Assembly (NCBI GenBank): GCA_001303665.1
Contig: LJUF01000010.1
Coordinates: forward strand, 1-34,009
From: Phycisphaerae bacterium SM23_33
Lineage (GTDB): Bacteria; Planctomycetota; Phycisphaerae; SM23-33
DNA length: 34,009 bases
Direction of reading: 5' to 3'
The translations under genes and the position numbers were made by a program. Within the stretch, counting starts at the first letter, position 1. Each line of letters opens with the position of its first letter. Below the pieces are notes generated by a model. The model was not told the DNA's origin. It saw only the letters and a program-made list of their open reading frames with translations, and searched no databases. Of the stretch, positions 6,211 to 29,244 are shown piece by piece.

Positions 6211-6219
6211 GACACTTCA

Positions 6220-7020: not shown

Positions 7021-7071
7021 GCTGTTTCTCCCGTTCCTTAGAACGTCCGGGTCACATGAAAATCCCAATAT

Positions 7072-11254: not shown

Positions 11255-11317
11255 AAGGCCCCTCAATTGCGGATCGGCCGCCGGCGGCGCCAGCCGCTTG
11301 ATCCGCCATCGGACATC

Positions 11318-12781: not shown

Positions 12782-14962
12782 TCAGAGCAGCGGGTCCATC
12801 TTCAGCGCGGGGTGATCCACCTTGGTCAGGTGCTCCAAAAGCTGCTCGGAGGTCGTGGCGATGGTCTCGTCGGCGATCTTATCCACGAGCCCCTCCATGC
12901 CTATCACCTTGGCGCGTTTTTCCAGCCTTTCGCGCATGTATTCCTTCAGCTCCTTCGGCATCCACGTCAGCCGGGGCAGCCCGCCCTCGGCGCTGATGAA
13001 CTTCCGGCTGGCCAGGTACAGCCGGCCGACGCCGACGAACCCGGGCGTCTGGGCCCCGCCGCCGACGCTGCCAGCCAGCGTCGAAAACGGCATGCCGATG
13101 GGCGTGTCCCCGGGGTATTCGCGGTTCACGATCATCACTCCGTTGGCCTCGGGGACGATGGCCAGGATGCACTCGAAGCAGCCGCAGGAGGTCATGGGGT
13201 TCTGCATCAGGCTGTAGGCGCTGAAGCGATCGACGCTACCGTTGGAGTGCTCGTGCACGAACTTGTTGACGTTCTCCCACTCGCCCAGGACCGGATCGAT
13301 GCACTTTCCTTTGGGCACGGGCTGGTTGCAGCCGGTGGGGTTGATCTCGTAGGCGGCCTGGCCGTCCAGCCAGTTGTACGCCCCGCACAGCCCCAGCCGC
13401 TCCGGGGTGATGATGCAGACGTGATTCGGGGCGAAGGACTGGCACAGCGTGCAGGAATAGAAGGTGTCCACCGACTCGTCCGTCATGCCGGCGACGCGCT
13501 CATCGCGGGCAGTCCAGATGGGCTTGGCGTGATCGATCAGGGCGGTAACCTCCTCGGGCTCGGTGGTGACGGTGACGGCCACCTTGTCCACGATGCCGCC
13601 GTACTCGTCGTGCAGCTTGGCATGGAGGATGGTGCCGATGTGCTTGAGACGGAAGCCCGCCTTCACCGCCTCCTTGCTGAAGCGGCACCAGATCTGGTGG
13701 CGCTGGCCGGTGTGCATGAAGCCCATGGCCTCGTTGCAGTACCGGTGGATCTGGCGCTCCAGGATGCCCTCGAAGTCGCTTTTCATCTTCCGTCCGGCGA
13801 CCCTGACGTGGATGGCCAGGTCCACGGCGCCGCCTTCCTCGACCTGGTCGAAGTCCTTGCCTTTGACGGTGACGTCGCCGTCGTTGACCTCGTCGAGTTC
13901 GGCCGATTCCAGCAGCTCCACCGCCCGGGAGTACTTGCCGCCGAACTGCACGTGCATGTCTTCCCGGCGGACGCGCTCGCCCTCAAAGGCCGGGGAGTAG
14001 GAAACCGGGATGTCGATCTCCTCCACCTTCACCTTCACGCCGCGGACCTCGATGCAGGTGGGGACGATCTGATCGGGGTCGGTCTGGCGGACCAGGGCCT
14101 CGTACGTCGTCACGCCGGTGGGGCGGACCTCGGGGGTGGATTCGTGGTCGGAGATAACCGGGAAGCCCATCACGATGGCCCCGGCGCCGACGGCGTACCA
14201 GTCGTCCGGGATGGGACCAAAGGTGATGCCAAAGGCGAAGGTGCGGGCCCGGGTATAGTCCAGACACTTCTTCCACTCGCCCTTCTTGTGGCCGCCGAAG
14301 GTCAGCGCCGCCCGCACCGCCCAGTTGAGCACGTAGATGGCGGACTGGGTGTCGCGCCCGACCGGCACGATGTAGGTGTCCCACCCCAGCTCGACGCCCT
14401 CGGCGATGAGTTGATCCTTCATGCTGGTGCCGTTGCGGCCACACAGCAGGAAGGTCAGGATGCTGCGCTTCTGCAATTCCCGCACGGTGTGCAGGGCGAT
14501 CTCGTTGGCCGGCGCGGGGCCGAGGATGGCGGCGAAGCCCGGCATGCGGCCGTCCACAAGCTGGATGCCCAGCTCGCGCTGGATCGTGTCGGAGATGAAG
14601 CCGGTGCAGCCCTCTTCGACGGGTTCGCCGTTCATGTACCGCAGCGCGCAGGTCGTCTCCAGCGCCAGCAGCGTGGCGATGCCGGCGTCGAGCCCGTCGC
14701 CCAGGTAGGGCAGCCACAATTCCTTGGCCGGTTCGGCCGGCAGCAATTCGCGGCAGCGGGCCAGCACCGGCTTCAGGTCCGCCACTGTCTTGACCTCCAG
14801 ACCCATCAGGGCGTAGACCATCGGCAGATAGAAGGCTGTGTCCGGAAACTCGACCTTCTGGTCTTCGCCCTTGGCCTGGACGGCCTCGGCGAGCTTCGCT
14901 TCAGCCTCCTCGACGAACCCGTGGGCGCCACGGATGGCCGCGGCGATCACCTCTCGCGACAT
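12782..14962 (-). CDS. acsB: Acetyl-CoA synthase (A-cluster subunit of CODH/ACS)
   Basis: 726 aa. A-cluster ligand region SCGCFECI. Bacterial full-length architecture. Confidence 0.95.
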   Translation of the reverse strand: MSREVIAAAIRGAHGFVEEAEAKLAEAVQAKGEDQKVEFPDTAFYLPMVYALMGLEVKTVADLKPVLARCRELLPAEPAKELWLPYLGDGLDAGIATLLALETTCALRYMNGEPVEEGCTGFISDTIQRELGIQLVDGRMPGFAAILGPAPANEIALHTVRELQKRSILTFLLCGRNGTSMKDQLIAEGVELGWDTYIVPVGRDTQSAIYVLNWAVRAALTFGGHKKGEWKKCLDYTRARTFAFGITFGPIPDDWYAVGAGAIVMGFPVISDHESTPEVRPTGVTTYEALVRQTDPDQIVPTCIEVRGVKVKVEEIDIPVSYSPAFEGERVRREDMHVQFGGKYSRAVELLESAELDEVNDGDVTVKGKDFDQVEEGGAVDLAIHVRVAGRKMKSDFEGILERQIHRYCNEAMGFMHTGQRHQIWCRFSKEAVKAGFRLKHIGTILHAKLHDEYGGIVDKVAVTVTTEPEEVTALIDHAKPIWTARDERVAGMTDESVDTFYSCTLCQSFAPNHVCIITPERLGLCGAYNWLDGQAAYEINPTGCNQPVPKGKCIDPVLGEWENVNKFVHEHSNGSVDRFSAYSLMQNPMTSCGCFECILAIVPEANGVMIVNREYPGDTPIGMPFSTLAGSVGGGAQTPGFVGVGRLYLASRKFISAEGGLPRLTWMPKELKEYMRERLEKRAKVIGMEGLVDKIADETIATTSEQLLEHLTKVDHPALKMDPLL

Positions 14963-15063: not shown

Positions 15064-16359
15064 TCAAAAGAAACCGAACACTTCCTGGTATTCCGGCTCC
15101 TTGAACTTCTCCCGATTGTCCCGGATCACCGGAAACATGGACGCGAAATCGTATTCGCCGGCAACGATCCGCTCCTTCGCCTGGGCCACGTCCACCCGTT
15201 TCTTCACCAGCGATCCCAGCACGCCGGCGTTATCGACCTTTCCCACCAGGGCGAAGCCCACCAGCCGGTTGCCCTGGAAGATGAACCGCTTGCAATCGGT
15301 CTTGCCCGGGCCCTTCCGGGTGATCTCCTCGGCGCCCTCGAGCTTCTCCCTGGCCCCCGTCAGCCCGGAGGTGATCAGCGACAGCCCCCCCAGCACAAGG
15401 GAGTTCATGGAGGTTCTGCCTCCGAGGACCGTGTCCCTGCCCATGACGTTCTCGGCGGCGACCCGGCCTTCCTCGATGGCGTGCGGCCAGAGAGCGTTGG
15501 TCCAGGTCTCGCCGCGAACGGTGTCCGGGCTCTGGGTGACGTCGCCGGCGGCGTACACGTCCGGCACGCTGGTGCGGGAGTGCTCGTCAATGAGAATGCC
15601 GTGTTCGGCCTGGATGTCCGTGCCCTTGACTAGCTGGGTGTTGGCCCGCACGCCCTTTCCGACGATCACCAGCTGTGCCTCGATCTTCCTGCCTTCGGTG
15701 GTCTCGATCCCCGAGACCTTTTCGTCGCCGAGCACCTTGGCGGGGTTGGTCCTGGTGAAGATCTCGATTCCCAGCCTGGTCAGGTGCTCCTCGAAGACCT
15801 GGGCTTCCGGTTCGGCCACGATCTGGCTGAGGACATTCGGCGAGCCGACGGCCACCGTGACCTGCTTGCCGCGCTCGTTGAGGGCAACCGCCGCCTTGAG
15901 TCCCACCAGCCCGCCGCCGAGCACAACGGCCGTATCCACTCCGTCGCAGTACTCGGCGATGCGCTCGGCGTCGGCCAGGGTGCGGAAGCCAAACACGCCC
16001 TGCTTCTCGATGCCGGGGATGTTGGGCATGGAGCACGTGCCCCCGGCGGCGACGATCAGGGCCTCGTAAGCCACCCGCTCGCCGCTGTCCAGAAGCACCT
16101 GCTTTTCCTTCGGCAGCACGCGCACGACCTCGCAGCCCAGCATCGCGTCGATCCGGTTGTCTTCATAGAAGCTGACGGGCTTGAAGAGGATGTCCTCAAC
16201 GGTCTTTTCCCCAGAGACCAGATACGGAATGAGGCAGCGCGAGTACGGGGGAACCTTCTCGTTGGAGATCACCGTGATCTGGCAGGCCGAGTCCAGCTTC
16301 CGCAAAGTCTCCGCCGCCGACAGGCCCGCAGCATGGTTGCCGATGATGACGACCTTCAT
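15064..16359 (-). CDS. FAD/NAD(P)-dependent pyridine nucleotide-disulfide-family oxidoreductase (CODH-associated 'FNOR' type)
   Basis: 431 aa. There are two dinucleotide-binding motifs (VVIIGNHAAG and AVVLGGGLVGLK). ATGA overlap with the cooF stop. Confidence 0.82.
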   Translation of the reverse strand: MKVVIIGNHAAGLSAAETLRKLDSACQITVISNEKVPPYSRCLIPYLVSGEKTVEDILFKPVSFYEDNRIDAMLGCEVVRVLPKEKQVLLDSGERVAYEALIVAAGGTCSMPNIPGIEKQGVFGFRTLADAERIAEYCDGVDTAVVLGGGLVGLKAAVALNERGKQVTVAVGSPNVLSQIVAEPEAQVFEEHLTRLGIEIFTRTNPAKVLGDEKVSGIETTEGRKIEAQLVIVGKGVRANTQLVKGTDIQAEHGILIDEHSRTSVPDVYAAGDVTQSPDTVRGETWTNALWPHAIEEGRVAAENVMGRDTVLGGRTSMNSLVLGGLSLITSGLTGAREKLEGAEEITRKGPGKTDCKRFIFQGNRLVGFALVGKVDNAGVLGSLVKKRVDVAQAKERIVAGEYDFASMFPVIRDNREKFKEPEYQEVFGFF

Positions 16360-16847
16360 GTTTTCAGCTCCGCTTGCTTGGCCGCTTCCCTGGCCTTGCG
16401 CCTCTGGGCGAATTCGTCCGCCGTTGCCTCAAACAGTGCCCCGGTCGGGCAGGCCTCCACGCACACAGGCCCGGCCTCCCTGTCGGCGCACATGTCGCAC
16501 TTGATGGTGAAGACCTCTCCCGGCCTGACGGCGCCGAAGGGGCAGACCATCACGCACATCCAGCAGCCCACGCACTTGTCCGTGTCGCAGATGACCTCGC
16601 CGGTGTCGGCGTCTTTCGTCATGGCCCCGGCCATGCACGCCTCCACGCAGGGGGCCGGGTCGCAGTGGCGGCACCCGATCGTCAGGCACGCCCCTTCCAC
16701 GGGCCTGACCCGCCGCCGCGGCAGCGGCCGGTCCTCTTCCAGCAGGGCCTTGGCCGCTTCCTTGCTCTCGGAATGCTCCACGGCGCAGGCGAACTCGCAG
16801 GAGTGGCATCCCAGGCACTTTCGGCTGTCGAAGTAGACCTTCTTCAT
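16356..16847 (-). CDS. cooF: CooF-like polyferredoxin (multiple [4Fe-4S])
   Basis: Motifs CLGCHSCEFAC, CRHCDPAPCVEAC, CVGCWMCVMVCP and CDMC...CVEACP. The likely start is MKKVYFD at 16847. The ORF-track start at 16877 is an upstream alternative. Confidence 0.85.
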   Translation of the reverse strand: MKKVYFDSRKCLGCHSCEFACAVEHSESKEAAKALLEEDRPLPRRRVRPVEGACLTIGCRHCDPAPCVEACMAGAMTKDADTGEVICDTDKCVGCWMCVMVCPFGAVRPGEVFTIKCDMCADREAGPVCVEACPTGALFEATADEFAQRRKAREAAKQAELKT

Positions 16848-16924
16848 CTTTCCATCACCGCCATTGTTTCGGGGCACCCGATGGTGCCCGCGGTTTTGCT
16901 TCCTGGCCGGCCGCGCGGCCCGGC

Positions 16925-18883
16925 CTACTCGGCGGCCCGGGCCTCCTCCACGGCCGTCCGCGGCGCATACGGCACCTCGTACATGGGCCCGGGCAGGTGC
17001 AGGGCGGACCGCTTGGCGTCGATGTGGTCGATCATCAGGCGGGCCGCCTTGATGGGGTCGGCCTCGAAGGCGAACTTCCCGCCGAACAGCTCCTCCATAT
17101 CCTCGCAGACGAACCGGGTGACCCTTGGCGCGCCTTGCACCGGCAGCGGCTCGCCCAGCACCGTGAACACGCCCGAGGCGACCACGTAGAAGCCGATGGA
17201 GACGGCCTTCTCACTCATCCATTCCGGGGCCGCCCCGGCCACGGGCAGGTCGGCGATGCTTTCGCCCAGCCCGCCTTCCTTGACCATGTTGGACAGCACC
17301 ACCAGGATTCGGCTGTTGTCCACGCAGCTTCCCAGGTGCAGCACGGGCGGGGCGCCGACCGCCCGGCAGACCTCCTGGAGTCCCCTGCCGGCATACTCCA
17401 TCGCCGCCTCCGGGCACATCAGCCCGGCCTTGGCGTCGGCGACGGCGGTGCAGCCGGTTACCGCCACCAGCACGTCGTTGCGGATCAGCTCCTTGGTCAT
17501 CTCCGTGTGGCCGTAGTCGTGCCGGTGCTTGGGGTTGTTGCATCCCACCACGCCGGCCACGCCTCGCAGCCGGCCCGACATGATGGCGTCGTTCAAAGGC
17601 CGGTAGCTCGGCCGGTACCGCCCTCCCAGCATGGCGTAGATGTTCTCGGCCGTGAATCCCGCAACCAGCGGGTTGCTGTGGCCGGGGACGCAGGGCTCGG
17701 TCTTGCGGTTGGGGAAGTTCTCGATGGCCGCGCGCACGATCCGCTTGGCAATCTCCAGCGCCCGCGACTCCTCGAACTCGATGTGCTCGGCAAAGGGGAA
17801 CTTCGCCTTGGGGCTGGTGGAGATGAACTTGGTGTGGAACTTCTGCGACAGCGCCCCCAGGGCGGGGAAGATGCATTGGACGTCCACGATCATGGCGTCC
17901 ACCACGCCGGTGGTGACGGCCAGCTCCTGCTGGAGGAAGTTGCCCGCCACGGGGATGCCGTGCCGCATCAGAATCTCGTTGGCGGTGCAGCAGATCCCGC
18001 TCAGGGTGATGCCCTTGGCGCCTTGGCTCTTGGCCAGTTCCACCATTTCCTTGTCCTGGGCGGCGGCCACGATCATCTCCGACAGCGTGGGCTCGTGCCC
18101 GTGGACGATGATGTTGACGTTCGCCGGCTCCAGGACGCCGAGGTTGGCCCGGCCGCGCACCCACTCGGGCGTGCGGAACAAGACGTCGGACAGGTCCGTG
18201 GCGATCATGCTGCCGCCCCAGCCATCGCCCAGGGACGCGCGGACGCCCTGCAGGATGATGTTCACCGGATCGTTGTCCACGCCGATGTGAGTGCGGTGCA
18301 TGATCTCGACGATCTCGCGGTCCACCCCGCGGGGCATGACGCGGGCCCGCTGCCAGCGCTTCTGCTGGTCGGCCGGCGCCCGAGCGGCGAAGACCACCTC
18401 CCCATGCTGCTGGCCGAACTGGCCGAAGGCAATCTCCGCCACGGCCCGGGCGATCTGGCGCAGGTCCTTGCCGTCGGCCTTGACGCCCAGCTCTTCGGCC
18501 AACGCGCGGAGCTTGGCCTCGTCCTTGACCTGGTAGTCGCACTTCTCGTCCTCGGCCGCCATCAGCAGCGTGTGGGCGATGTCGCGACCGTGATCGGAGT
18601 GCGCGGCGGCCCCGCCTGCAATCATCCGCACCAGGTTGCGGGCGGCGATGATGTCGGCGTCGGCCCCGCAGATGCCCGCGGCCGGGCCTTCCCCGAAGGG
18701 ATCGATCCGGCACGGGCCCATGGTGCAGTTGCGGCAGCAGATGCCGAGCTGCCCGAAGCCGCACTGGGGCTCCATCGCTTCCTGCCGGTCCCAGGCCACC
18801 GCCAGCCCTTTGGAGGCGGCTGCCTCCAGCATCGCAACGGTGGCGGGATCAACGCTTCGCTGTTTGGGCGTTTTCACGGACAC
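16925..18883 (-). CDS. cooS: Anaerobic Ni,Fe carbon monoxide dehydrogenase catalytic subunit
   Basis: 652 aa. The N-terminal D/B-cluster region is CGFGQLGICCRNCTMGPCRI. The protein is CooS/AcsA-like across its full length. The start is GTG at 18883, or GTG at 18877, which has better spacing to GAGAGG. Confidence 0.95.
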   Translation of the reverse strand: MSVKTPKQRSVDPATVAMLEAAASKGLAVAWDRQEAMEPQCGFGQLGICCRNCTMGPCRIDPFGEGPAAGICGADADIIAARNLVRMIAGGAAAHSDHGRDIAHTLLMAAEDEKCDYQVKDEAKLRALAEELGVKADGKDLRQIARAVAEIAFGQFGQQHGEVVFAARAPADQQKRWQRARVMPRGVDREIVEIMHRTHIGVDNDPVNIILQGVRASLGDGWGGSMIATDLSDVLFRTPEWVRGRANLGVLEPANVNIIVHGHEPTLSEMIVAAAQDKEMVELAKSQGAKGITLSGICCTANEILMRHGIPVAGNFLQQELAVTTGVVDAMIVDVQCIFPALGALSQKFHTKFISTSPKAKFPFAEHIEFEESRALEIAKRIVRAAIENFPNRKTEPCVPGHSNPLVAGFTAENIYAMLGGRYRPSYRPLNDAIMSGRLRGVAGVVGCNNPKHRHDYGHTEMTKELIRNDVLVAVTGCTAVADAKAGLMCPEAAMEYAGRGLQEVCRAVGAPPVLHLGSCVDNSRILVVLSNMVKEGGLGESIADLPVAGAAPEWMSEKAVSIGFYVVASGVFTVLGEPLPVQGAPRVTRFVCEDMEELFGGKFAFEADPIKAARLMIDHIDAKRSALHLPGPMYEVPYAPRTAVEEARAAE

Positions 18884-19204: not shown

Positions 19205-20080
19205 ATGAAACTGGCCGTATCCGGAAAAGGCGGTGTGGGCAAAACGACCCTGTCGGCCATGCTGGCGGCGGCCCTGGCCTTGAAAGGGCGCACCGTGGTC
19301 GCCCTCGACGCCGACCCCGACGCCAACCTGGGCTCGGCCCTGGGCCTGCCCGCCGACGAGCCCATCACCCCGCTGGCCGAGATGGAAGACCTCATCCGGC
19401 AGCGGACCGGGGCCCAGAAAGGCTACGGCACCTTCTTCAAGCTCAATCCCAAGGTGGACGACATCCCGGAAAGCTATGCCCGGCGGATCGGCAACATCCG
19501 CCTGCTGGTGCTGGGCGGCATCCGCGCCGGCGGCGACGGCTGCCTCTGCCCGGCCACCGCGCTGCTGAAGGCCCTGCTGGTCCATTTGATCCTCGGCCGG
19601 GACGAGCACCTCATCATGGACATGGAGGCGGGCATCGAGCACCTCGGCCGGGCCACCGCCCAGTCCATGGACGCCTTGCTGGTGGTGGTGGACCCGACGC
19701 CCTGGAGCACCCAGACGGCCCACCGCGTCCGCAAGTTGGCCGGCGACATCGGGATGAAGAAGGTGCTGGCCGTGGCCAACCGCATAAGCCGACCCGACGA
19801 GGCGGACGGCATCCGGCAGCGGCTTGGGGAAATCCCGCTGGCGGGCCATCTGCCCGCCGACGAGCCCATCACCCCGCTGGCCGAGATGGAAGACCTCATC
19901 CGGCAGCGGACCGGGGCCCAGAAAGGCTACGGCACCTTCTTCATGGAAAAGCGGCTTGCCGAGGCTGCGCCTTCCACGCCCGCCCCGAAGGCGCCGATCC
20001 GCAGCCCCGCCCAGCCAACCCGGTTCTGCCGACAGCAAAAAGCCCTTGCCTTCCCCGAGCGGTTTCTGTATACGGAGTAG
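19205..20080 (+). CDS. cooC: CooC-type CODH nickel-insertion ATPase with an aberrant, internally duplicated C-terminus
   Basis: MKLAVSGKGGVGKTT Walker A. CLCP metal motif. CooC-like up to ...GEIPLAGHLPAD. A perfect copy of aa 48-78 then follows, and after it a non-CooC-like 45-aa tail. The long ORF-track entry 16997..20080 is a run-on antisense to cooS. Confidence 0.8.
   Translation: MKLAVSGKGGVGKTTLSAMLAAALALKGRTVVALDADPDANLGSALGLPADEPITPLAEMEDLIRQRTGAQKGYGTFFKLNPKVDDIPESYARRIGNIRLLVLGGIRAGGDGCLCPATALLKALLVHLILGRDEHLIMDMEAGIEHLGRATAQSMDALLVVVDPTPWSTQTAHRVRKLAGDIGMKKVLAVANRISRPDEADGIRQRLGEIPLAGHLPADEPITPLAEMEDLIRQRTGAQKGYGTFFMEKRLAEAAPSTPAPKAPIRSPAQPTRFCRQQKALAFPERFLYTE
19346..19439 (+). repeat. 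94-nt perfect direct repeat, copy 1 (inside cooC)
   Basis: As I read it, this is identical to 19850-19943. The offset is 504 nt, which is in frame. It encodes LPADEPITPLAEMEDLIRQRTGAQKGYGTFF. Confidence 0.85.
19850..19943 (+). repeat. 94-nt perfect direct repeat, copy 2 (cooC 3' region)
   Basis: Identical to 19346-19439. It begins right after the native ...GHLPAD context, which shares LPAD microhomology with copy 1. Confidence 0.85.
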
Positions 20081-20139: not shown

Positions 20140-20250
20140 GGCGTGTGCAGAGGCCCTGAGGTTCGGCGCACTCTGGCACGGCTCAAGCACCCCTGCGGCA
20201 CCCAGGCGAGGTGTAATTGTCAAAACGCCCTGAGCGCAAGGAGATTTTGT

Positions 20251-21999
20251 ATGGGCAAGTCCGTTCCGTCCGACATTGAGATTTCCAGGGCCGCCAAGCC
20301 CAAGCCGATCACCCAGGTCGCCAAGGAGGCGGGCATCCGCCCCAAGGAGCTGGAGCCGTACGGCGACGTCAAGGCCAAGGTGAAGCTGAGCATACTGGAC
20401 CGCCTGGCCAAGGCACCTAACGGCAAGTACATCGACGTGACCGCCATCACGCCCACGCCGTTGGGAGAGGGCAAGACCACCACGGCGGTGGGCCTGACCC
20501 AGGCCCTGGGAGTGCTGGGCAAGAAGGTGTTCCTGTGCATCCGCCAGCCCTCGATGGGACCGACCTTCGGCATCAAGGGCGGCGCGGCCGGCGGCGGCTA
20601 TAGCCAAGTCATCCCCATGGAGGAGTTCAACCTCCACCTCACCGGCGACATCCACGCCGTCAGCATCGCCCACAACCTGCTGGCGGCCGCCGTGGACGCC
20701 CGCATCAAGCACGAGGGCCACGCCGACGACGAGGCCTGGGCGAAGACGGGGCTGCCCCGGCTGAACATCGACCCGGACTCCATCACCTGGCGCCGGGTGG
20801 TGGACGTCAACGACGCGGCCCTGCGCTTCATCGAGACCGGCCTGAGCGACAGCTGGCTGGACGGGCCGCGGCGGAAGACCGGCTTCGACATCTCCGTGTC
20901 CTCGGAGATCATGGCCATCCTGGCCCTGGCCGCCGGGCCGGAGGACATGCGCCAGCGGCTGGGGCGGGTCATCATCGGCCTGAACAAAGACGGCGACCCG
21001 GTCACCGCCGAGGACCTGGGCTGCGCCGGGGCGATGATGGTGCTGCTGAAGGACGCCATCAAGCCCAACCTCATGCAGACCCTGGAAGGCCAGCCCGCCT
21101 TCGTCCACGCCGGGCCCTTCGCTAACATCGCCCACGGCAACAGCTCCATCCTGGCCGACAAGATCGCCCTGAAGCTGGCCGACTACGTGGTGACCGAATC
21201 CGGCTTCGGGGCCGACATCGGCATGGAGAAGTTCTTCGACATCAAGTGCCGCACCAGCGGGCTGGTGCCCAACTGCGTGGTGCTGGTGGGCACCATCCGG
21301 GCGCTGAAGATGCACGGCGGCGGGCCCAAGGTCACCCCCGGCAAGCCGCTGGCCGAGGAGTACACCCGCGAAAACCTCCAGCTTCTGGAGAAGGGCCTCT
21401 GCAACCTCACCCGGAACATCGAGATCGCCAAGATGTTCGGCGTGCCGGTGGTGGTGGCCATCAACCAGTTCCCCGCCGACACGCCCGCCGAGGTGGAGCT
21501 GGCCCGCCAGGCCGCCGAGCAGGCCGGCGCCGAGGCCGCCGTCATGTCCAACCACTGGGCCGAGGGCGGCCAGGGCGCCACCGACCTGGCCGAGGCGGTC
21601 GTGGCCGCCTGCGACAAGCCCACCGACTTCAAGCTGCTGTACCCCAACGAGATGTCCATCAAGGACAAGATCGAGCTGATTGCCAAGAAGGTGTACCTGG
21701 CCGGGGCGCTGGAGTACGCCCCGGTGGCCGAAAGACAGGTCGCCGCCTACGAAAAGGCCGGCCTGAGCCACCTGCCCATCTGCATGGCCAAGACGCACCT
21801 GTCCCTGACTCACGACCCCACGCTCAAGGGCGTGCCCCGCGGCTTCACCGTGCCCATCGTGGAGGTGCGGGCCTCGGCCGGGGCCGGCTTCCTGTACCCC
21901 CTGCTGGGCACCATGCGGACCATGCCGGGGCTGCCCAGCCGGCCGGCGTTCCTGAGCGTGGACCTGGACGGCGACGGCCAGGTCGTGGGCATGTTCTGA
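20251..21999 (+). CDS. fhs: Formate--tetrahydrofolate ligase
   Basis: The ATG at 20251 is preceded by AAGGAG. Sequence includes SDIEI..., [11 protein letters not shown] and the FTHFS family signature throughout. 582 aa. Confidence 0.95.
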
Positions 22000-22144: not shown

Positions 22145-24226
22145 ATGCAGAAGGCGGACTTGACATCAAGGGACATTGCCGAGCTCGGGCGGGTTACCGA
22201 ACTCATGGAGCGCGAGTGGTCCCCCTGCCGATACCATTGCCCCGTCCACGCGGACGTCCGGGGTTACATCGAGGCGGCCGCTCAGGGCCGGTTTGGCGAA
22301 GCCATCGACATCATTCGGGAGAACCTCCCGTTCGCCGCGGTGTGCGGGCGGGTCTGCCACCATCCCTGTGAGACCAACTGCCGCCGCAAGGACGTGGACG
22401 ACCCTGTGGCCATCCGGCACGTGAAGCGGTTCGTGGCCGAATTGCAGGGCGCCGAAGGCTGCACGGTTCACAAGCCGCCGGCCCAGGACAAGGCCCGGGT
22501 CGCGATTGTGGGCGCCGGCCCGGCCGGTCTGTCGGCGGCGCTGCACCTGGCCAAGCTCGGCTACCGCCCCACGGTCCTGGAGAAGTTCCCTATTGCCGGC
22601 GGCATCCCCGCCACCGCCATTCCCCGGTACCGCCTGCCCCTGGAAGTCGTCCAGATCGACGTGGACTGGATCCGCGCCCACGGGGTGGAACTGATCACCG
22701 GCGTCGAGGTCGGCAAGGACAGAAGCATCCAGGACCTGCTGGGCGAAGGGTACGAGGCGGTGCTGGTGGCGGCCGGCTTGGCCGCCAGCCGCACCCTGCC
22801 TCTGCCCGGCTCCGACCACCCGCGCGTGCATCTGGCCCTGGACTTCCTGACGGCCCTGAACTTCGGCGACAGGCCGGACGCCGGGGATGACGTGCTGGTC
22901 ATCGGCGGCGGCAACGTCGCCTGCGACGCAGCCCGCTCCTGCGTGCGGCTGAAGCCGGCCGCCCGCGTCCGCATGATGTGCTTGGAAAATGAAGAAGAGA
23001 TGCCCGCCTGGGAGTGGGAGCGGCGCGAGGCCGAGGAGGAGGGCGTCGGGATCATCTTCCGCCGCGGGCCGGTGAAGGTGATCCTCGAAGGCGACCGAAT
23101 CGTCGGCCTGACCACCCGCGGGGTCACCCGTGTTTTCGATTCGGAGGGGCGCTTCGACCCGCAGTACGACGACACGGACCTGAGCGACCTGCAGTGCGAT
23201 ACCGTCGTCATCGCCATCGGGCAGATGGCCAACATGGGCTTCGCCCGGGGCAGCGGTCTGAAGGCGGGCCCGGGCGGCCGGCTGGAATACGATCCGGCCA
23301 CCCACCAGGGCAGCCTGCCCAACGTCTTCTTCTGCGGGGAGATCGTCACGCCCCCCGGCTCGGTGGTGGAGGCCTGCGCCCACGGCCAGCGGGCGGCCAA
23401 GGCCATCCACATGTACCTGAGCGGCAAGACCATTCAGATTGACGATTCACTGCCGCCGTACATCGACACCATCCAGCCCGAAACCGCCGAGAAGGTGCTG
23501 AAAGTCTGCCGCCAGGCCATCCCCACGGACCCCCCCCAGCGGCGGAGGAAGCTGTTTACTGAGTTCGAGCGCGGCTACGACGAGCCAGCGGTGCTGGCCG
23601 AGGCCCGGCGGTGCATGAACTGCGGCAGCGGGGCCGAGGTCCTCACCGACAAGTGCGCCGCCTGCCTCACCTGCCTGCGCGTCTGCCCCTTCGACATTCC
23701 GGTGGTGACGGACGTGGCCCGGATCCAATCCACCCTGTGCCAGGCCTGCGGCATGTGCATTGCCGAATGCCCGGCCAACGCCATCATCGCCCGCGGCCGG
23801 GACGTCGGGGAGCTGGTCCAGCACACCGCGGCGGCCTTGGCCAAGATGAACGGGCGCGAGCCCAAGGTTATCGCTTACGTCTGCGGCCACCACGCCGGTG
23901 CCGCCGATTGGGGCGGTCGCGTCGAGGGCGTGGAGGGCGTGGCCGAAATCTACCTGCCCAGCACCGCCCGGCTCAGTTCGGCCGAGCTGCTGCACGCCTT
24001 CGAGAACGGCGCGGATGCCGTGATCGTGGTGGCATGTCCGGACGCGGCCGATCGTTATCCGCAAACGGCCGATCGCACCCGGCGGCGGGTCAACCAGGCC
24101 CGCCGGCTGCTCCAGGAAGCGGGCCTGGACGGCCAGGCCCTGCAACTGCTGGAAGTGGCCGACCAGGGCCGGCAGGCCATCCGCGCCGCCCTGGCCGAGG
24201 CGGCCGGAAAGACAAGTGCCTCTTAG
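22145..24226 (+). CDS. Fusion protein: GltD/NfnB-like NAD(P)H-FAD oxidoreductase plus 2x[4Fe-4S] ferredoxin domain plus MvhD(FlpD)-like domain
   Basis: N-terminal Fe-S region CRYHCPVH...CGRVCHHPCETNCRR. Dinucleotide folds VAIVGAGPAGLSAA and VLVIGGGNVACDAA. Ferredoxin motifs CAACLTCLRVCP and CQACGMCIAECP. The C-terminal part (KVIAYVCGHHAGAADWGG...GADAVIVVACPDA...) is FlpD/MvhD-like. The ATG at 22145 is preceded by GGAGAGG. Confidence 0.82.
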   Translation: MQKADLTSRDIAELGRVTELMEREWSPCRYHCPVHADVRGYIEAAAQGRFGEAIDIIRENLPFAAVCGRVCHHPCETNCRRKDVDDPVAIRHVKRFVAELQGAEGCTVHKPPAQDKARVAIVGAGPAGLSAALHLAKLGYRPTVLEKFPIAGGIPATAIPRYRLPLEVVQIDVDWIRAHGVELITGVEVGKDRSIQDLLGEGYEAVLVAAGLAASRTLPLPGSDHPRVHLALDFLTALNFGDRPDAGDDVLVIGGGNVACDAARSCVRLKPAARVRMMCLENEEEMPAWEWERREAEEEGVGIIFRRGPVKVILEGDRIVGLTTRGVTRVFDSEGRFDPQYDDTDLSDLQCDTVVIAIGQMANMGFARGSGLKAGPGGRLEYDPATHQGSLPNVFFCGEIVTPPGSVVEACAHGQRAAKAIHMYLSGKTIQIDDSLPPYIDTIQPETAEKVLKVCRQAIPTDPPQRRRKLFTEFERGYDEPAVLAEARRCMNCGSGAEVLTDKCAACLTCLRVCPFDIPVVTDVARIQSTLCQACGMCIAECPANAIIARGRDVGELVQHTAAALAKMNGREPKVIAYVCGHHAGAADWGGRVEGVEGVAEIYLPSTARLSSAELLHAFENGADAVIVVACPDAADRYPQTADRTRRRVNQARRLLQEAGLDGQALQLLEVADQGRQAIRAALAEAAGKTSAS

Positions 24227-24238
24227 GAGGTTTTTTCG

Positions 24239-24928
24239 ATGATCGTCGCCGAACGAAAGCCATTCGACGAAATCGTGGAGATGGTCGCGCCGTATAAGAA
24301 GGTGCTGGTGCTCGGCTGCGGCAGCTGCGTGACCGTGTGCCTGACCGGCGGGGAGCGACAGGCTGAGATACTCGCCTCGCAGCTCCGCCTGGCCGGGCGG
24401 AAGAAGGGCCTGGACCTGTCCGTGGACTTCGACTGCATCACCCGGCAGTGCGACCGCGAGTTCACCGAGAACCTCAAGTTCGACCCGGCCGAGTACGATG
24501 CCGTGCTGAGCCTGGCCTGCGGCGTGGGGGTGGGTTTCATGAGCGGGGTGCTTCCCGACACGCCCGTGCTTCCGGCCCTGAACACCACGTTTTACGGCGC
24601 GGGCGTGGCCGAAGGCGTCTGGGAGGAATACTGCCACGGCTGCGGGGATTGTGTGCTGGCCTGGACCGGGGGCATCTGCCCCATCGCCCGCTGCTCCAAG
24701 AGCCTCATCAACGGCGCCTGCGGCGGCACCAACGACGGCAAGTGCGAAGTCAGCCAGGACATGGACTGCGGCTGGCACCTGATCTACAAGCGTCTGCAGG
24801 AGCTCGGCCGGCTGGACGAACTCCGCAAGATGCGCCCGCCCAGAGACTGGAGCAAGAATCGCAGCGGCGGCGTCCGCCGCCTCAGCCGCGAGGAAATGGC
24901 CGAGATCGCCCAGGAGTCCGCCGAATGA
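24239..24928 (+). CDS. metV: Methylenetetrahydrofolate reductase small subunit (MTHFR C-terminal-like, Cys-rich)
   Basis: 229 aa. Sequence includes CGSCVTVC and CPIARCSKSLINGACGGTNDGKCEV...C. ATGA overlap with the metF start. Confidence 0.87.
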   Translation: MIVAERKPFDEIVEMVAPYKKVLVLGCGSCVTVCLTGGERQAEILASQLRLAGRKKGLDLSVDFDCITRQCDREFTENLKFDPAEYDAVLSLACGVGVGFMSGVLPDTPVLPALNTTFYGAGVAEGVWEEYCHGCGDCVLAWTGGICPIARCSKSLINGACGGTNDGKCEVSQDMDCGWHLIYKRLQELGRLDELRKMRPPRDWSKNRSGGVRRLSREEMAEIAQESAE

Positions 24929-25836
24929 ACGAGCCCGTCAGCAAATTGCAGGAGATCTTGGACGCCGGCCAGTTCGCCGTCACCGGAGAGATCGGCCCGC
25001 CCAAGGGCACCAACGTCGAGCCAGCCCTGCACGAGGCCCAGCAGTACCTCGAGGGCCGGGTGGCCGCCGTCAACGTCACCGACATTCAGACGGCGGTGAT
25101 GCGGCTGGGGTCGATGGCCGTCTGCCACCTGCTGCTGGACCGCGGCGTCGAGCCGGTCTTCCAGATGGTCTGCCGCGACCGCAATCGCCTGGCCCTGGAA
25201 TCCGACCTGCTTTCCGCCTACACCCTGGGCATCCGCAACGTCCTGGCCCTGACCGGCGACCACGTGGCCATGGGCGACCATCGCGAGGCCAAGTGCGTCT
25301 TCGACCTGGATTCGGTGGGCCTGCTGGAGGCGATGGCCCGCCTGGAGGCCGGCACCGACCTGGGGCGGGATGCGAAAGGCAACCCCAACCAACTCGACGG
25401 GGTGCCCAAGTTCTTCAAGGGCTGCTGCGTCACGCCCTGCGCCGACGAGGTCGAACCGCAGATCATCAAGCTGGAAAAGAAGGCCACCGCCGGCGCCCAG
25501 TTCGTCCAGACCCAGGCGGTGTACGACCCGGCGGCGTTCGAAAAGTTCATGAACCAGATCCAGCACGTCAAGGTCCCGGTGCTGGTGGGGATCGTGCTGC
25601 TGAAGTCGGCCGGCATGGCCAAGTACATGAACCGCTCGGTCCCGGGCGTGCAGGTGCCCGACGCAATCGTCCAGCGGCTGACCGACGCGCCCAAGGAAGA
25701 CCGCGCCAAGGTCAGCGTCGAGATCGCCGCCGAGCTCATCCGTGCGATGAAGCCCATGTGCCAGGGGGCCCACCTGATGACCCTAGGCTGGGATCACTGC
25801 GTGCCCGACATCATTCAGCAAGCGGAACTGGCGTAA
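24925..25836 (+). CDS. metF: Methylenetetrahydrofolate reductase catalytic subunit
   Basis: 303 aa from the ATG at 24925. It has an MTHFR TIM-barrel sequence (VNVTD..., LALTGD..., AGAQFVQTQAVYD). The ORF-track entry 24448.. includes an out-of-gene N-terminal extension. Confidence 0.92.
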   Translation: MNEPVSKLQEILDAGQFAVTGEIGPPKGTNVEPALHEAQQYLEGRVAAVNVTDIQTAVMRLGSMAVCHLLLDRGVEPVFQMVCRDRNRLALESDLLSAYTLGIRNVLALTGDHVAMGDHREAKCVFDLDSVGLLEAMARLEAGTDLGRDAKGNPNQLDGVPKFFKGCCVTPCADEVEPQIIKLEKKATAGAQFVQTQAVYDPAAFEKFMNQIQHVKVPVLVGIVLLKSAGMAKYMNRSVPGVQVPDAIVQRLTDAPKEDRAKVSVEIAAELIRAMKPMCQGAHLMTLGWDHCVPDIIQQAELA

Positions 25837-25847
25837 GGAGACAGACG

Positions 25848-26825
25848 GTGGCAGCCAAGATCATCGACGGTGAGGCGGTAGCCGAGGAAATCAAGAAGAA
25901 GGTGGCCGCGGACGCGGCCGAACTGGCCCAGGCCGGCAGGCCGCCCCACCTGGTGGCGGTGCAAGTCGGGGAAAACCCGGCTTCCAAGATCTACACCAAC
26001 ATGCAGGCCAAGGCCTGCGAATCGGTGGGGATCCAATACGAGCTGCTCAACCTGCCGGAAGATACGACCCAGGAGGCGCTGCTGGCCAAGGTCGGCGAAC
26101 TGAACGCCGACAAGAAGGTAACGGGCCTGATCCTCCAGATGCCCGTTCCCCCCCAGATCGACGCCCGCCAGGTCCAGGTGAGGCTCTCGCCGGCCAAGGA
26201 TGTCGAGGGCATGCACCCTGAAAACATGGGCCGGCTGTTCTACGGCGGCGGCATCGTCGCCCCTTGCACGGCCCTGGCCGCGGTGGAGCTGCTCAAGCGG
26301 GCCTGCCCGAACCTCACCGGCAAAGAGACGGTCATCGTCGGCCACAGCGAGATCGTGGGCAAGCCCGTGGCCATGATCCTGCTGCAGTCGCTGAACGAGT
26401 CCCCCACCGCCACCGTCTGCCACATTGCCACGAAGGACCTGGCCGCCCACACCCGCCGGGCCGAGGTGCTCATCGTCGCCACCGGCGTTTCGCAGGCGCG
26501 GTGGCAGGCCTACAGCCGAAGGAAAAAGGCCGGCGAGAAGCCCCCGCTGCCGGACCTGTCGCCGTTGATCAAGGCCGACATGCTCCGGCAGGGCGCCATC
26601 GTCATTGACGTGGCCATGAACCGCATCCCCAAGGGCTTCGACGACAGCGGCGAGCCCCTGAAAAACGAAAAGGGCAGCACCATCATGCAGACCGTCGGCG
26701 ACGTGGACTTCGCCGCGGCCAAGGAAAAGGTCGCCGCCATCACCCCCGTCCCCGGCGGCGTGGGGCCGGTCACCGTGGCCATGCTGCTGGCCAACACCGT
26801 GGCCTGCGCCGAGGCCCTGGCCTGA
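25848..26825 (+). CDS. folD: Bifunctional methylene-THF dehydrogenase / methenyl-THF cyclohydrolase
   Basis: The GTG at 25848 is preceded by AAGGAG. Sequence includes IIDGEAVA..., LILQMPVP, VIVGHSEIVGKP and TPVPGGVGPVTVAML. At 325 aa it is longer than the ~285 aa I recall as typical, because of two insertions. Confidence 0.92.
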   Translation: MAAKIIDGEAVAEEIKKKVAADAAELAQAGRPPHLVAVQVGENPASKIYTNMQAKACESVGIQYELLNLPEDTTQEALLAKVGELNADKKVTGLILQMPVPPQIDARQVQVRLSPAKDVEGMHPENMGRLFYGGGIVAPCTALAAVELLKRACPNLTGKETVIVGHSEIVGKPVAMILLQSLNESPTATVCHIATKDLAAHTRRAEVLIVATGVSQARWQAYSRRKKAGEKPPLPDLSPLIKADMLRQGAIVIDVAMNRIPKGFDDSGEPLKNEKGSTIMQTVGDVDFAAAKEKVAAITPVPGGVGPVTVAMLLANTVACAEALA

Positions 26826-26949: not shown

Positions 26950-29244
26950 ATGGACATTGCCAGCCAACTCCAGTTCCACCCGCTGTTCGCCACCTTCAGC
27001 CCTGATGCCCTGGCCGAGGTCGTCCGCGCCAGCACCGCCGTTACCTACCAGCCGGGCGACGTCTGCATCCGGCAGGGCGAGGCCGGAGAGGTCTTCGGAG
27101 TCCTGATCTCCGGGAAGCTGGAGGCGGCCCGCGACCTGGGCACCGAGCAGCGCGAACGCCTGGGCACGATTGAACCGGGCGAATGCTTCGGGGAGATGTC
27201 GCTGCTGACCGGCAGCCCGGCCGCGGCCGAGGTGGTGGCGGTGACGGAATCCGAGGCCGTCGTCTTTCTCCAGGAGGCCATCGGCCCCCTCATCGCCCTC
27301 AACCGCAACGCCGTCCAGCTTCTGACTCGGTTGATGGCACGCCGGCTGGCCGGCCCCAGGCCGCAGGCGACGTCGCCGCGCCCGGCCGCGGTCACCTACA
27401 GCCTGGGCGCCAGCGGCCCCATGCGAATCCTGTCCATAAGCTGCCGCCGGGACGATCTGCGGTACAGCTACTTCGACACGACCTCCGAGCAGGCGCTGGC
27501 AACGGGCAGCGCGACCGGCCTGGGCGGCCAGGAGGCGGTTCACACTCACCGCGGCCCCAAGGGCGCACTTCAGGAGCGGGTCGGCCCCCCCACCCACGAG
27601 GCGGCGCTGGCCGCGGCCCTGGACGCGTTGACAGCCGCCGACGGCGGGCTGCTCGGCTCGGCGGCGGAACTGTCGGCCATCGGGCACCGCGTCTGCCACG
27701 GCGGGCTCGGCTTCAACGGCCCGGCGGTGGTGGATGAGCAGGTGCTGGAGGAGATCCGCCGGCTGGCGCCCCTGGCCCCGATGGAAAACCCCTACAATCT
27801 GCTCGGAATCGAGGCCTGCCGGAAGCTCGCCCCGGGCGTCGCCCAGGTGGCTGTCTTCGACACGGCCTTCCACCTGAGGATGCCGGCCGCGGCCTGCCGC
27901 TACGCCCTGCCCCAAGACCTGGCCGGGGAGGTCGAACTCCGCCGGTTCGGCTCCCACGGGATTTCGCACGAAGGTGCGGCCCGGGCCGCCTGCGCTTACC
28001 TCGGCAGGAACTTCGACACGCTGAAAATCATCAGCTGCCACCTCGGCACGGGGGCCTCGCTGACGGCCATCGATCACGGCCGGCCGGTGGACAATACCAT
28101 GGGCTTCACCCCCATGGAGGGGCTGGTCATGGCCACGCGGCCGGGCGACGTGGACCCCGGTCTCCTGCTGTACCTGATCGCCCAGCGCGGCATCCCCGCG
28201 GAGGAGCTGACCCGCCGGCTGTACACCGAGTCGGGCCTGCTGGGGCTGTCGGGCATCTCCGGTGACGTCCTTACCGTGCTCGGGGCCGCCGATGAGGGAA
28301 ATCCCCAGGCCCTGCTGGCCATGCAGGTCTATTGCCACCGGGCGCGGAAATACCTCAGCGCCTACGTGGGGCTGCTGGGCGGCGTGGACGGGATCGTCTT
28401 CACCGGCGGCGTGGGCCAGAACGCCCCCGGCCTGCGGGCCCGCATCTGCCAGGGCCTGGAATGGATGGGCATCGTGCTGGACGAAGGGCGCAACCGCCAA
28501 GCCCGGCCGGGGGCGGGCGAAGTGGCCGAGATCTCCCAGAGCCAGTCGCGGGCCCGCGTGCTGGCCGTCGGCAGCAGCGAGGACCACACCATCGCGATCC
28601 AGGCCGTCCGCGCCGTGACGCAAAGACGCGTCACCGACGTCATCCGCCACCAGCAAAAGCCGATCCCCATCAGTGTTTCCGCTCACCACGTCCATCTCAC
28701 CCAGGAGCACGTCGAGGCACTTTACGGGGCCGGGCGGGAGCTCACCTGGTACGCCGAACTCTCTCAGCCAGGCCAGTTCGCCTGCAACGAGCAGCTCTCC
28801 CTGATCGGACCCAAGGGCCGCATCGACCACGTGCGAGTCCTCGGGCCCGTGCGGCCGGAAACCCAGGTCGAAATCTCCCGCACCGAGGAATTCAAGCTGG
28901 GCATCGACGCCCCCATCCGCATGTCCGGAGACCTGGACGGCACGCCGGGCCTTACCCTGCAAGGCCCACAGGGCCAGGTCCATCTCCAGCGCGGCGTCAT
29001 CTGCGCCATGCGACACATTCACATGTCGCCGGCCGACGCCATGGAGTTCGCCGTCCGCGACCGCGACACCGTCCGCGTCCGCGTCCCCGGCGAGCGCTCG
29101 CTGGTCTTCGGCGACGTGGCCGTCCGGGTCAATCCGGACTACCGCCTGGACATGCACATCGACACCGACGAGGCCAACGCCGCCGAGCTCAGCCCCGGGG
29201 CCGTCGGCTACCTCGACTCCATCCAACAAAGGGCCTCCGCCTGA
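26950..29244 (+). CDS. Triple fusion: CAP/cNMP-binding-type effector domain plus acetate/propionate kinase-family domain plus PduL-type phosphotransacylase
   Basis: 764 aa. Residues ~8-125 form the cNMP-type beta-barrel (GECFGEMSLL). Residues ~158-556 are the kinase family (GHRVCHGG, VAVFDTAFH, RRFGSHGISH, ISCHLGTGASLTAIDHG, IVFTGGVGQN). Residues ~571-748 are PduL (VSAHHVHL, SQPGQFAC, AMRHIHM, HIDTDEANAA). GAGGG lies 9 nt upstream of the ATG. Confidence 0.88.
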   Translation: MDIASQLQFHPLFATFSPDALAEVVRASTAVTYQPGDVCIRQGEAGEVFGVLISGKLEAARDLGTEQRERLGTIEPGECFGEMSLLTGSPAAAEVVAVTESEAVVFLQEAIGPLIALNRNAVQLLTRLMARRLAGPRPQATSPRPAAVTYSLGASGPMRILSISCRRDDLRYSYFDTTSEQALATGSATGLGGQEAVHTHRGPKGALQERVGPPTHEAALAAALDALTAADGGLLGSAAELSAIGHRVCHGGLGFNGPAVVDEQVLEEIRRLAPLAPMENPYNLLGIEACRKLAPGVAQVAVFDTAFHLRMPAAACRYALPQDLAGEVELRRFGSHGISHEGAARAACAYLGRNFDTLKIISCHLGTGASLTAIDHGRPVDNTMGFTPMEGLVMATRPGDVDPGLLLYLIAQRGIPAEELTRRLYTESGLLGLSGISGDVLTVLGAADEGNPQALLAMQVYCHRARKYLSAYVGLLGGVDGIVFTGGVGQNAPGLRARICQGLEWMGIVLDEGRNRQARPGAGEVAEISQSQSRARVLAVGSSEDHTIAIQAVRAVTQRRVTDVIRHQQKPIPISVSAHHVHLTQEHVEALYGAGRELTWYAELSQPGQFACNEQLSLIGPKGRIDHVRVLGPVRPETQVEISRTEEFKLGIDAPIRMSGDLDGTPGLTLQGPQGQVHLQRGVICAMRHIHMSPADAMEFAVRDRDTVRVRVPGERSLVFGDVAVRVNPDYRLDMHIDTDEANAAELSPGAVGYLDSIQQRASA

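Follow-up and report, generated by a model that had tools for sequence, protein, structure and literature searches.

Electron supply and energy conservation in the reduction of methylene-tetrahydrofolate (THF) are an old question of acetogen bioenergetics. Öppinger et al. distinguished four types of methylene-THF reductase (MTHFR), namely MetF (type I), MetVF (type II), MetVF with RnfC2 (type III) and MetVF-HdrCBA-MvhD (type IV), and the type III enzyme of Acetobacterium woodii uses the reduced pyridine nucleotide NADH as donor and does not bifurcate electrons (PMC8760232). Here, we analyzed a 34,009-nucleotide stretch of contig LJUF01000010.1 from Phycisphaerae bacterium SM23_33 (the window), in which metV and metF follow the gene of a single 693-residue protein. 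This protein, hereafter the fusion protein, combines an NfnL/GltD-type module for flavin adenine dinucleotide (FAD) and NAD(P)H, an RCxxC motif, a ferredoxin domain with two [4Fe-4S] clusters and an MvhD/FlpD-like domain. We found that the fusion-MetVF architecture fits none of the four published types; judged from its sequence features, it would be a fifth. A first reading of the same DNA (the original prediction) had listed these four types, in agreement with the published scheme, and had placed the arrangement outside them.

The assignment of the two downstream genes to the MetVF type was based on profile searches. MetF carries the MTHFR domain (PF02219), and its score against TIGR00676, the NAD(P)H MTHFR equivalog, was 74.9 bits against a cut-off of 293.7, which shows that it does not belong to the NAD(P)H-using type I family; such a MetF needs an input module. 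It is directly adjoined by a cysteine-rich DUF5981 MetV. RnfC_N, Complex1_51K and SLBB domains, which would mark type III, were absent from the fusion protein and from the other scanned open reading frames (ORFs) of the window. Similarly, hdrA, hdrB (CCG domain) and hdrC, expected for type IV, were not found among the scanned ORFs, as the original prediction had stated, and the MvhD domain is present with an incomplete set of [2Fe-2S] cysteines. Searches of the open-access literature gave no paper that describes a protein with GltD/NfnB, ferredoxin and MvhD parts beside metVF, although such an absence is not proof.

Comparison with the multi-subunit types revealed shared features together with clear differences. 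Like the A. woodii MetF-MetV-RnfC2 enzyme, the locus combines MetVF with an additional subunit that has a pyridine-nucleotide site, a flavin and several [4Fe-4S] clusters, and the three genes are adjacent; by analogy, the fusion-MetVF enzyme most likely works like type III. In contrast, RnfC2 is a Complex1_51K/RnfC-type flavin mononucleotide protein with an N-terminal MetV-like domain and is unrelated to the NfnL/GltD-type FAD protein found here. The type IV enzyme of Moorella thermoacetica (MetFV-HdrCBA-MvhD) is similar in that MvhD and a C-terminal ferredoxin domain of the HdrA type are associated with MetVF, but its thioredoxin-reductase-like HdrA core with the presumed bifurcating FAD, its HdrB and its HdrC have no counterpart here. 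Moreover, MvhD is a separate protein in type IV, whereas it is fused in our locus and has lost its [2Fe-2S] ligands in the Phycisphaerae-type clade.

The fusion gene, metV and metF are closely packed. A GGAGAGG ribosome-binding site lies 5 nt ahead of the ATG of the fusion gene, the TAG of which ends at 24226; the 12-nt gap to the metV ATG at 24239 contains AGGAGG, and metV and metF overlap in ATGA. The original prediction had given this spacing and overlap, and the coordinates agreed. The gap and the overlap point to translational coupling of the three genes. No convincing terminator was present between 22145 and 26825 in a terminator scan, and folD is probably in the same operon. A weak, terminator-like hairpin with a T-run at 24218-24231 (+) overlaps the fusion stop codon and the metV ribosome-binding site; as it has 3 G-C pairs and 10 sites of its kind were observed against 5.4 expected, we rejected it as a terminator and regard it as probably a chance feature, which could nevertheless modulate translational coupling.

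The linkage was found to extend far beyond this contig. MetV is encoded directly downstream of the full-length fusion gene in 34 of the 35 species-representative genome loci with room for it, and in the reverse survey, starting from MetV, the fusion gene is the upstream gene in every metagenome locus with more than 400 nt upstream of MetV (26/26). The adjacency also holds in distant members with 40-51% identity from Brocadiaceae, Syntrophobacteraceae, Bacillota, Hebobacteria, Desulfobulbaceae and Armatimonadetes. It is kept in three different gene orders, including metV-metF-fusion in the P0133 lineage and, for P0169, a divergent position beside a fused MetV-MetF gene, and the recurrence of the three-gene arrangement in dozens of independent contigs is more than chance would give. 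Because the adjacency holds in both directions and survives rearrangement, this strong comparative evidence makes the fusion protein a highly likely functional, and probably physical, partner of MetVF. The neighborhood survey suggested with the original prediction thus supports its linking of the fusion protein with MetVF. Two variant loci were also observed. On L103, MetV and MetF are fused into one 543-residue protein (2199-3830, -) near acsC, and the fusion gene P0169 (4001-6109), which carries a YRR motif at its pyridine-nucleotide site, is transcribed divergently from it. On L102, genes for RnfC, RnfB and Rnf-Nqr subunits (1-2684, -) lie divergent from a fusion-metV-metF operon with a cluster-less MvhD-like domain (P0138, 4001-6064).

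Both the ORF and the Pfam matches (Table 1) agree with the earlier description of a 693-residue protein joining a GltD/NfnB-type module, a ferredoxin domain and an MvhD-like domain. The Fer4_20 match covers profile positions 30-109 of 113, so that the first CxxC is missing. Across 28 sequences taken from loci and 40 representatives, neither its six cysteines nor Lys94 vary, and the region is predicted to hold both [4Fe-4S] clusters of the NfnL-like module, the proximal and the distal one. Following the flavin module, an EAxRCxxCG motif was found that is also present after the NfnL-like domain of the solved NfnA chains 9bov_A and 9n5u_A, of StnC and of an HdrL protein from locus L050. We infer that Cys490 and Cys493 of this motif would supply the two cysteines absent from the N-terminal Fer4_20 region and thereby complete the distal cluster. 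All eight cysteines of the ferredoxin domain are invariant in the clade alignment and the 40 representatives. The AlphaFold2 model of the fusion protein had a predicted local distance difference test (pLDDT) score of 88.5 and a predicted template modeling score of 0.87. When the C-terminal 214 residues were compared with the PDB, the top matches were TALE repeat proteins, which we rejected as low-complexity matches to the Ala/Gly-rich linker; a search with the FlpD part alone returned clean MvhD matches.

The fusion protein belongs to a large family with generic public annotation, such as 'FAD-dependent oxidoreductase'. An identical 693-residue gene call is present in the public collection (P0001). 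A word-indexed search revealed more than 120 clusters (90% identity level) of homologs of the same length, 60-75% identical, from Phycisphaerae-type metagenome-assembled genomes (MAGs); all of them contain the FlpD domain and none carries an informative name. The closest relatives are labeled as Phycisphaerae or Planctomycetota MAGs, and approximately 40 clusters at 50% identity are spread across several phyla, including anammox relatives and Desulfobacterota.

Many HdrL-type proteins of 1470-1530 residues were among the closest representatives of the fusion protein, which bears on its origin. The HdrL type was first named in Desulfobacterium autotrophicum (PMC2702500). In an unclassified MAG (L050, 8119-15985), we found the gene order hdrC-hdrB-hdrL-mvhD-metV-metF, in which HdrL is a 1474-residue HdrA with an NfnL-like insert; this cluster is a variant of the type IV MTHFR that includes a pyridine-nucleotide module of its own. 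A second MTHFR-like gene is located upstream of it (5715-6590). The fusion protein shares 37% identity with the HdrL insert over 505 residues and 47% with the C-terminal ferredoxin domain, and its residues 496-679 match the NCBIfam HdrA2 profile (HdrA fused to MvhD; E = 9e-30). The simplest history suggested by these sequences would be that the fusion protein derived from an HdrL-MvhD-MetVF ancestor by loss of the HdrA core and HdrBC, a loss that would connect the NfnL-like entry module directly with MvhD and the ferredoxin domain. The HdrL variant of type IV is thus probably the evolutionary source of the fusion.

To compare the MvhD-like domain with genuine MvhD, we aligned the last 124 residues of the fusion protein with the solved MvhD chains 5odc_D, 7bkb_F, 8rvu_F and 9sfi_K (E = 4e-8 to 3e-5). 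The domain is homologous to the alpha/beta domain of MvhD in MvhAGD-HdrABC (5odc, 7bkb) and adjoins an HdrA-type ferredoxin domain, as in HdrA2. The two differ in the cysteines. FCCNWC of MvhD corresponds to YVCGHH in the fusion protein, MCSGR to PSTAR and GGCHLGDCHY to VACPDAADRY, leaving Cys580 and Cys631 as the only two of the five conserved positions that are kept, in line with the substitutions listed in the original prediction. Throughout the Phycisphaerae-type clade, Ser (Ser606) takes the place of MvhD Cys41 and Asp or Glu (Asp636) that of Cys72, and in an alignment of 51 sequences Cys580 and Cys631 themselves were replaced in many members. With three of five positions substituted and the other two variable within the clade, a [2Fe-2S] cluster is very unlikely, and the domain is very probably cluster-less in this clade, as had been proposed. 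His582/583, Ser606 and Asp636 were considered as substitute ligands and rejected, since the variation of Cys580 and Cys631 leaves no conserved four-ligand set. Compensating cysteines gained in MetV were likewise rejected, as the MetV cysteine pattern is the same across cluster-less, cluster-intact and HdrL-type loci.

Four MvhD cysteines are retained in most of the family's remaining lineages. Outside the clade, all four are lost in P0133 and P0138, and three of the four are kept in P0137, P0143, P0144, P0152 and P0161; judging from these alignments, complete or partial loss took place several times independently. The domain is not decaying, as evident from the mean pairwise identities within the clade (0.53 for the MvhD-like domain, 0.67 for the flavin module and 0.30-0.43 for the linkers), in which the constraint relative to the flavin module equals that of cysteine-intact relatives (0.48 versus 0.58). 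The clade has also gained new invariant residues in this domain, Arg637 and Pro639, along with the near-invariant Ser606 and Tyr638, and the AlphaFold2 model shows a beta-alpha-beta pattern with pLDDT values of 85-95. The simplest reading of the sequences and the model is that the cluster-less domain has a structural role as a scaffold or docking module, and the docking-only role suggested earlier fits the observed constraint.

The flavin module was found to be most similar to the NfnL-like parts of a particular group of enzymes. PDB sequence searches gave Csac NfnA (9bov_A, 5e-84), Tsi NfnA (9n5u_A, 9e-79) and StnC (8oh5_C, 1e-68) as the top matches, followed by weaker matches to Tm NfnB (4ylf_B, 3e-61), Pf NfnI-L (5jca, 5e-58) and GltD (7e-46), and Foldseek with the AlphaFold2 model also placed the Csac NfnA, Tsi NfnA and StnC chains on top. 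The second Rossmann fold of the fusion protein contains G254-x-G256-x-x-A259, a helix and, in the model, a strand at 274-278, followed by Cys279-Leu280-Glu281; the five NADPH enzymes in the alignment carry Tyr-Arg-Arg at this place. In Rossmann folds, specificity for NAD(H) is classically set by an acidic residue that ends strand beta2, and the 2'-phosphate of NADP(H) is bound by paired Arg residues. As Leu280-Glu281 replace the Arg-Arg of the NADPH-using relatives, the window enzyme would rather likely use NADH than NADPH, while pyridine-nucleotide input by the fusion protein as such is very probable. The earlier NAD(P)H-linked reading is thus supported and narrowed to a predicted NADH specificity. 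The same logic of an acidic residue at beta2 was applied to Glu-286 of NfnB (PMC12018979). Among 40 representatives of the fusion family, 29 carry CLE and 11 carry YRR, so that the specificity site evidently switches within the family; L050 HdrL has YRRS, the NADPH-type motif, at this position, in contrast to CLE in the fusion protein.

In the Bfu-type transhydrogenases StnABC and NfnABC, the FAD of the NfnL-like module takes a hydride from NADPH and relays single electrons without bifurcation, which was placed in the NuoEF-like subunits (PMC10482914, PMC11829005, PMC12018979); the module is thus an entry or exit site in these enzymes. Like StnC and NfnA (8oh5, 9bov, 9n5u), the fusion protein has a Lys at the proximal cluster, no Arg333 and EAxRCxxCG after the flavin domain. 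The differences concern the remaining parts: StnC and NfnA use NADPH (YRR versus CLE here), carry a NuoG/Fdh-like domain next and have NuoEF-like subunits as docking partners, whereas the fusion protein continues into the ferredoxin and MvhD-like domains, and no NuoE- or NuoF-like gene flanks its gene. With NfnB/NfnL of NfnAB (NfnSL; 4ylf, 5jca) it shares the fold, with FAD, two Rossmann domains and Fer4_20, and an Arg (Arg163, equivalent to NfnB Arg201), but it differs in having Lys94 for Glu, Trp289 for Arg333 and Leu-Glu for Arg-Arg, and in lacking an NfnA partner gene.

These comparisons bear on the suggestion of the original prediction that the complex is possibly bifurcating. In such an enzyme, two NAD(P)H would be oxidized at the FAD of the fusion protein or at another flavin, with one electron pair passing downhill via MetV to methylene-THF and the uphill pair passing through the ferredoxin domain to an external ferredoxin, so that the step would conserve energy. 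The potential of NADH (approximately -320 mV) does lie between those of methylene-THF (-200 mV) and ferredoxin (approximately -450 mV), and bifurcation has long been postulated for MTHFR (PMC8760232). In addition, the flavin module is a member of the NfnL superfamily and is related to the HdrL insert, which is part of a presumed bifurcating complex, and the ferredoxin domain on its C-terminal side is HdrA-like. Although Arg163 is conserved, this residue is present in the non-bifurcating StnC as well. The ligand of the FAD-proximal cluster is Lys in StnC/NfnA and Glu in NfnB (PMC10482914); Lys94 aligns with StnC Lys170 and with the Glu of Tm NfnB (4ylf_B) and Pf NfnI-L (5jca_L). The criteria described for NfnB include an invariant Arg333 (Pf numbering), an upstream nfnA gene and an extended N-terminus (PMC12221290), none of which was found. 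Trp289 aligns with Arg333 of Pf NfnI-L, at a position where the clade has W, Y or F and where the 40 representatives show no conserved Arg; the gene immediately upstream is fhs and not nfnA; and the extended N-terminus with the first two ligand cysteines is absent, residues 1-27 containing no Cys. The HdrA core, the presumed bifurcation site of Hdr-type enzymes, is also missing, as the HdrA2 profile was matched only at positions 571-757 of 777, and so are HdrBC. Based on the likeness to StnC/NfnA, where the flavin module is a plain entry site, together with Lys94, Trp289 and the lack of nfnA and of an HdrA core, bifurcation is not favored: the fusion enzyme is probably non-bifurcating, and a bifurcating complex appears unlikely. 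Within the original prediction, the suggestion of bifurcation is the weakest element. An even less likely variant would be a minimal bifurcating MTHFR of three polypeptides without an Hdr core, in which the cluster-less MvhD domain acts as a conformational gate and not as a wire; if true, it would represent the long-sought energy-conserving methylene-THF reduction.

From the observed domain content, residue conservation and synteny, a path can be proposed for a three-subunit, non-bifurcating NADH:methylene-THF reductase, a mechanism that, taken as a whole, we regard as somewhat probable. NADH would bind to the second Rossmann fold, as predicted from Glu281, and would transfer a hydride to FAD, as in the homologous modules. 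FAD would then release single electrons to the proximal [4Fe-4S] cluster, held by three Cys and Lys94, and on to the distal [4Fe-4S] cluster, following clusters C7/A7 and C6/A6 of StnC/NfnA, and from there the electrons would cross the HdrA-type ferredoxin domain by way of its two [4Fe-4S] clusters. In most family members, the MvhD [2Fe-2S] cluster would be the next relay. As this cluster is gone in the Phycisphaerae clade, the last cluster of the ferredoxin domain would there reduce MetV directly, and the MvhD-like domain would probably only position MetV. The MetV clusters would finally reduce the flavin of MetF, and methylene-THF would be converted to methyl-THF, as known for MetVF (PMC8760232). 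The net reaction would be NADH + H+ + CH2-THF -> NAD+ + CH3-THF, with no reduction of ferredoxin.

Several points weigh against this mechanism. The Lys/Glu and Arg333 criteria, applied here by analogy, are correlates of bifurcation in other enzymes and not proofs, and a non-bifurcating NADH enzyme would waste approximately 23 kJ/mol in an organism near the thermodynamic limit, which is the usual argument for bifurcation. The NADH prediction draws on a general Rossmann-fold rule and an alignment, the formation of a three-protein complex is suggested by synteny, and a structure search found no solved structure of any MetV. The loss of the MvhD [2Fe-2S] cluster removes a relay link that most relatives keep. 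Finally, two family members have no metVF in their available flanks (L026:6567-8588 and P0129 = L104:4001-6118); their MetVF may be encoded at another place, or the module may pass electrons to a different acceptor. One of these two orphans is of the cluster-less type and comes from a low-GC Desulfobia MAG.

The orphans and the missing MvhD relay would also suit a free-standing NADH:ferredoxin oxidoreductase, similar to the monofunctional NfnB-like enzymes, that shares no more than its regulation with a ferredoxin-dependent type II MetVF, with soluble ferredoxin as the carrier. NfnB-like proteins alone catalyze Fd:NAD(P)+ oxidoreduction (PMC12221290), and reduced ferredoxin can serve as donor for purified MetVF enzymes of type II (PMC8760232). 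Nevertheless, the near-obligate adjacency in both directions, its persistence in three gene orders and the translational coupling are more than usual co-regulation, and a cluster-less MvhD-like adaptor domain kept under constraint is hard to explain for a free enzyme. In addition, electron transfer from NADH to free ferredoxin is uphill, so that electrons from NADH would not reach MetVF by this route, and we consider it as doubtful as bifurcation. It is improbable that the three-protein complex runs oxidatively, from methyl-THF to methylene-THF with reduction of NAD+, or serves anabolic C1 supply instead of acetogenesis: related fusions do occur in Syntrophobacteraceae and other Desulfobacterota able to reverse the pathway, and the A. 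woodii NADH enzyme is reversible when its product is pulled away (PMC8760232), but the window encodes a complete reductive set (fdhA, fhs, folD, acsABCDE, cooS), the acetate kinase-PduL fusion directly downstream points to acetate formation, and methyl-THF oxidation with NAD+ is endergonic.

The window, with a G+C content of approximately 68%, is essentially one Wood-Ljungdahl locus. Its genes, assigned by Pfam and NCBIfam profile searches, and the parts of the fusion protein are listed in Table 1.

Table 1. Genes of the Wood-Ljungdahl locus and regions of the fusion protein, with positions in the 34,009-nucleotide window.
Feature	Position	Strand	Remarks
PyrK/AsrB-like flavoprotein ORF	428-1000	+	
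fdhA	1073-3109	+	
ShyB/AsrA-like Fe-S protein	3106-4131	+	
DRTGG protein	4143-5234	-	
DUF3786 protein	5262-5906	-	
acsE	6220-7068	-	
acsD	7529-8563	-	
cooC-like gene	8506-9321	-	
RACo	9323-11266	-	
acsC	11318-12661	-	
acsB	12782-14962	-	
FAD/NAD oxidoreductase	15064-16359	-	
cooF	16356-16877	-	
cooS	16925-18883	-	
second cooC (cooC-like)	19205-20080	+	
fhs (formate-THF ligase)	20248-21999	+	FTHFS, E = 3e-253; 145 nt upstream of the fusion gene
Fusion gene (NfnL-like/ferredoxin/MvhD-like), 693 aa	22145-24226	+	ORF, ribosome-binding site, Pfam domains
Fer4_20 region, residues 26-102	22220-22450	+	Pfam Fer4_20 at residues 26-102, E = 4e-20; Cys28, 32, 67, 71, 75, 79 and Lys94
FAD-/NAD(P)H-binding two-Rossmann module, residues 118-428	22496-23428	+	Pfam Pyr_redox_2 at residues 118-414, E = 4e-29; GAGPAG 123-128, GGGNVA 254-259
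Cys279-Leu280-Glu281, predicted NADH-specificity determinant	22979-22987	+	End of beta2, NAD(P)H Rossmann fold
Arg-Cys490-x-x-Cys493 motif following the flavin module	23612-23623	+	Invariant in all family members
2x[4Fe-4S] ferredoxin domain, HdrA C-terminal type	23654-23785	+	Pfam Fer4 dicluster at residues 501-547; Cys504/507/510/514, Cys532/535/538/542
MvhD/FlpD-like domain, residues 572-685, predicted cluster-less scaffold	23858-24199	+	Pfam FlpD at residues 576-685, E = 6e-13; incomplete Cys set
metV, 229 aa, Fe-S/Zn subunit of MetVF	24239-24928	+	DUF5981, E = 4e-37
metF, 303 aa, catalytic methylene-THF reductase subunit	24925-25836	+	MTHFR, E = 7e-41
folD	25860-26825	+	THF_DHG_CYH domains; 23 nt downstream of metF
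Cyclic nucleotide (cNMP)-binding/acetate kinase/PduL fusion	26950-29244	+	

Further features of the locus were observed outside the fusion-metV-metF genes. The last gene in Table 1 encodes a single 764-residue protein composed of a cyclic-nucleotide-binding domain, an acetate kinase and a PduL-type phosphotransacylase, so that both steps from acetyl-CoA to acetate reside in one polypeptide, possibly under cNMP control; a homolog of this acetate kinase-PduL fusion (65% identical) is located near the operon in L010. At the other end of the window, the PyrK/AsrB/NfnA-like flavoprotein ORF stops halfway through NAD_binding_1 (profile positions 1-55 of 109) and may reflect a frameshift or a pseudogene; were it complete, the set of this ORF, fdhA and the ShyB-like protein would resemble an NAD(P)H-linked formate dehydrogenase. 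The oxidoreductase of the cooS-cooF-FAD/NAD oxidoreductase trio is most similar to PadH-type NADH-dependent subunits, which makes the trio the second predicted pyridine-nucleotide-linked module of the locus. Inside the second cooC-like gene, we found a perfect 94-nt direct repeat (19346-19439 and 19850-19943, 504 nt apart) through which the peptide LPADEPITPLAEMEDLIRQRTGAQKGYGTFF occurs twice and the normal C-terminus of this CooC-type ATPase is replaced; an assembly artefact and a genuine duplication within the gene are both conceivable.

Taken at the level of sequence, the fusion-MetVF genes appear to represent a widespread and so far unnamed fifth MetVF-type MTHFR architecture, marked by an MvhD module that has degenerated repeatedly and by a site at which the cofactor preference switches. 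Because the family holds both Glu-type and Arg-Arg-type members as well as members with cysteine-intact and cysteine-less MvhD domains, it provides a natural experiment on cofactor switching and on the need for the MvhD cluster as a relay. If the non-bifurcating NADH reading is true, models of Wood-Ljungdahl-positive Planctomycetota would book this step as NADH-consuming, with no gain of ferredoxin.

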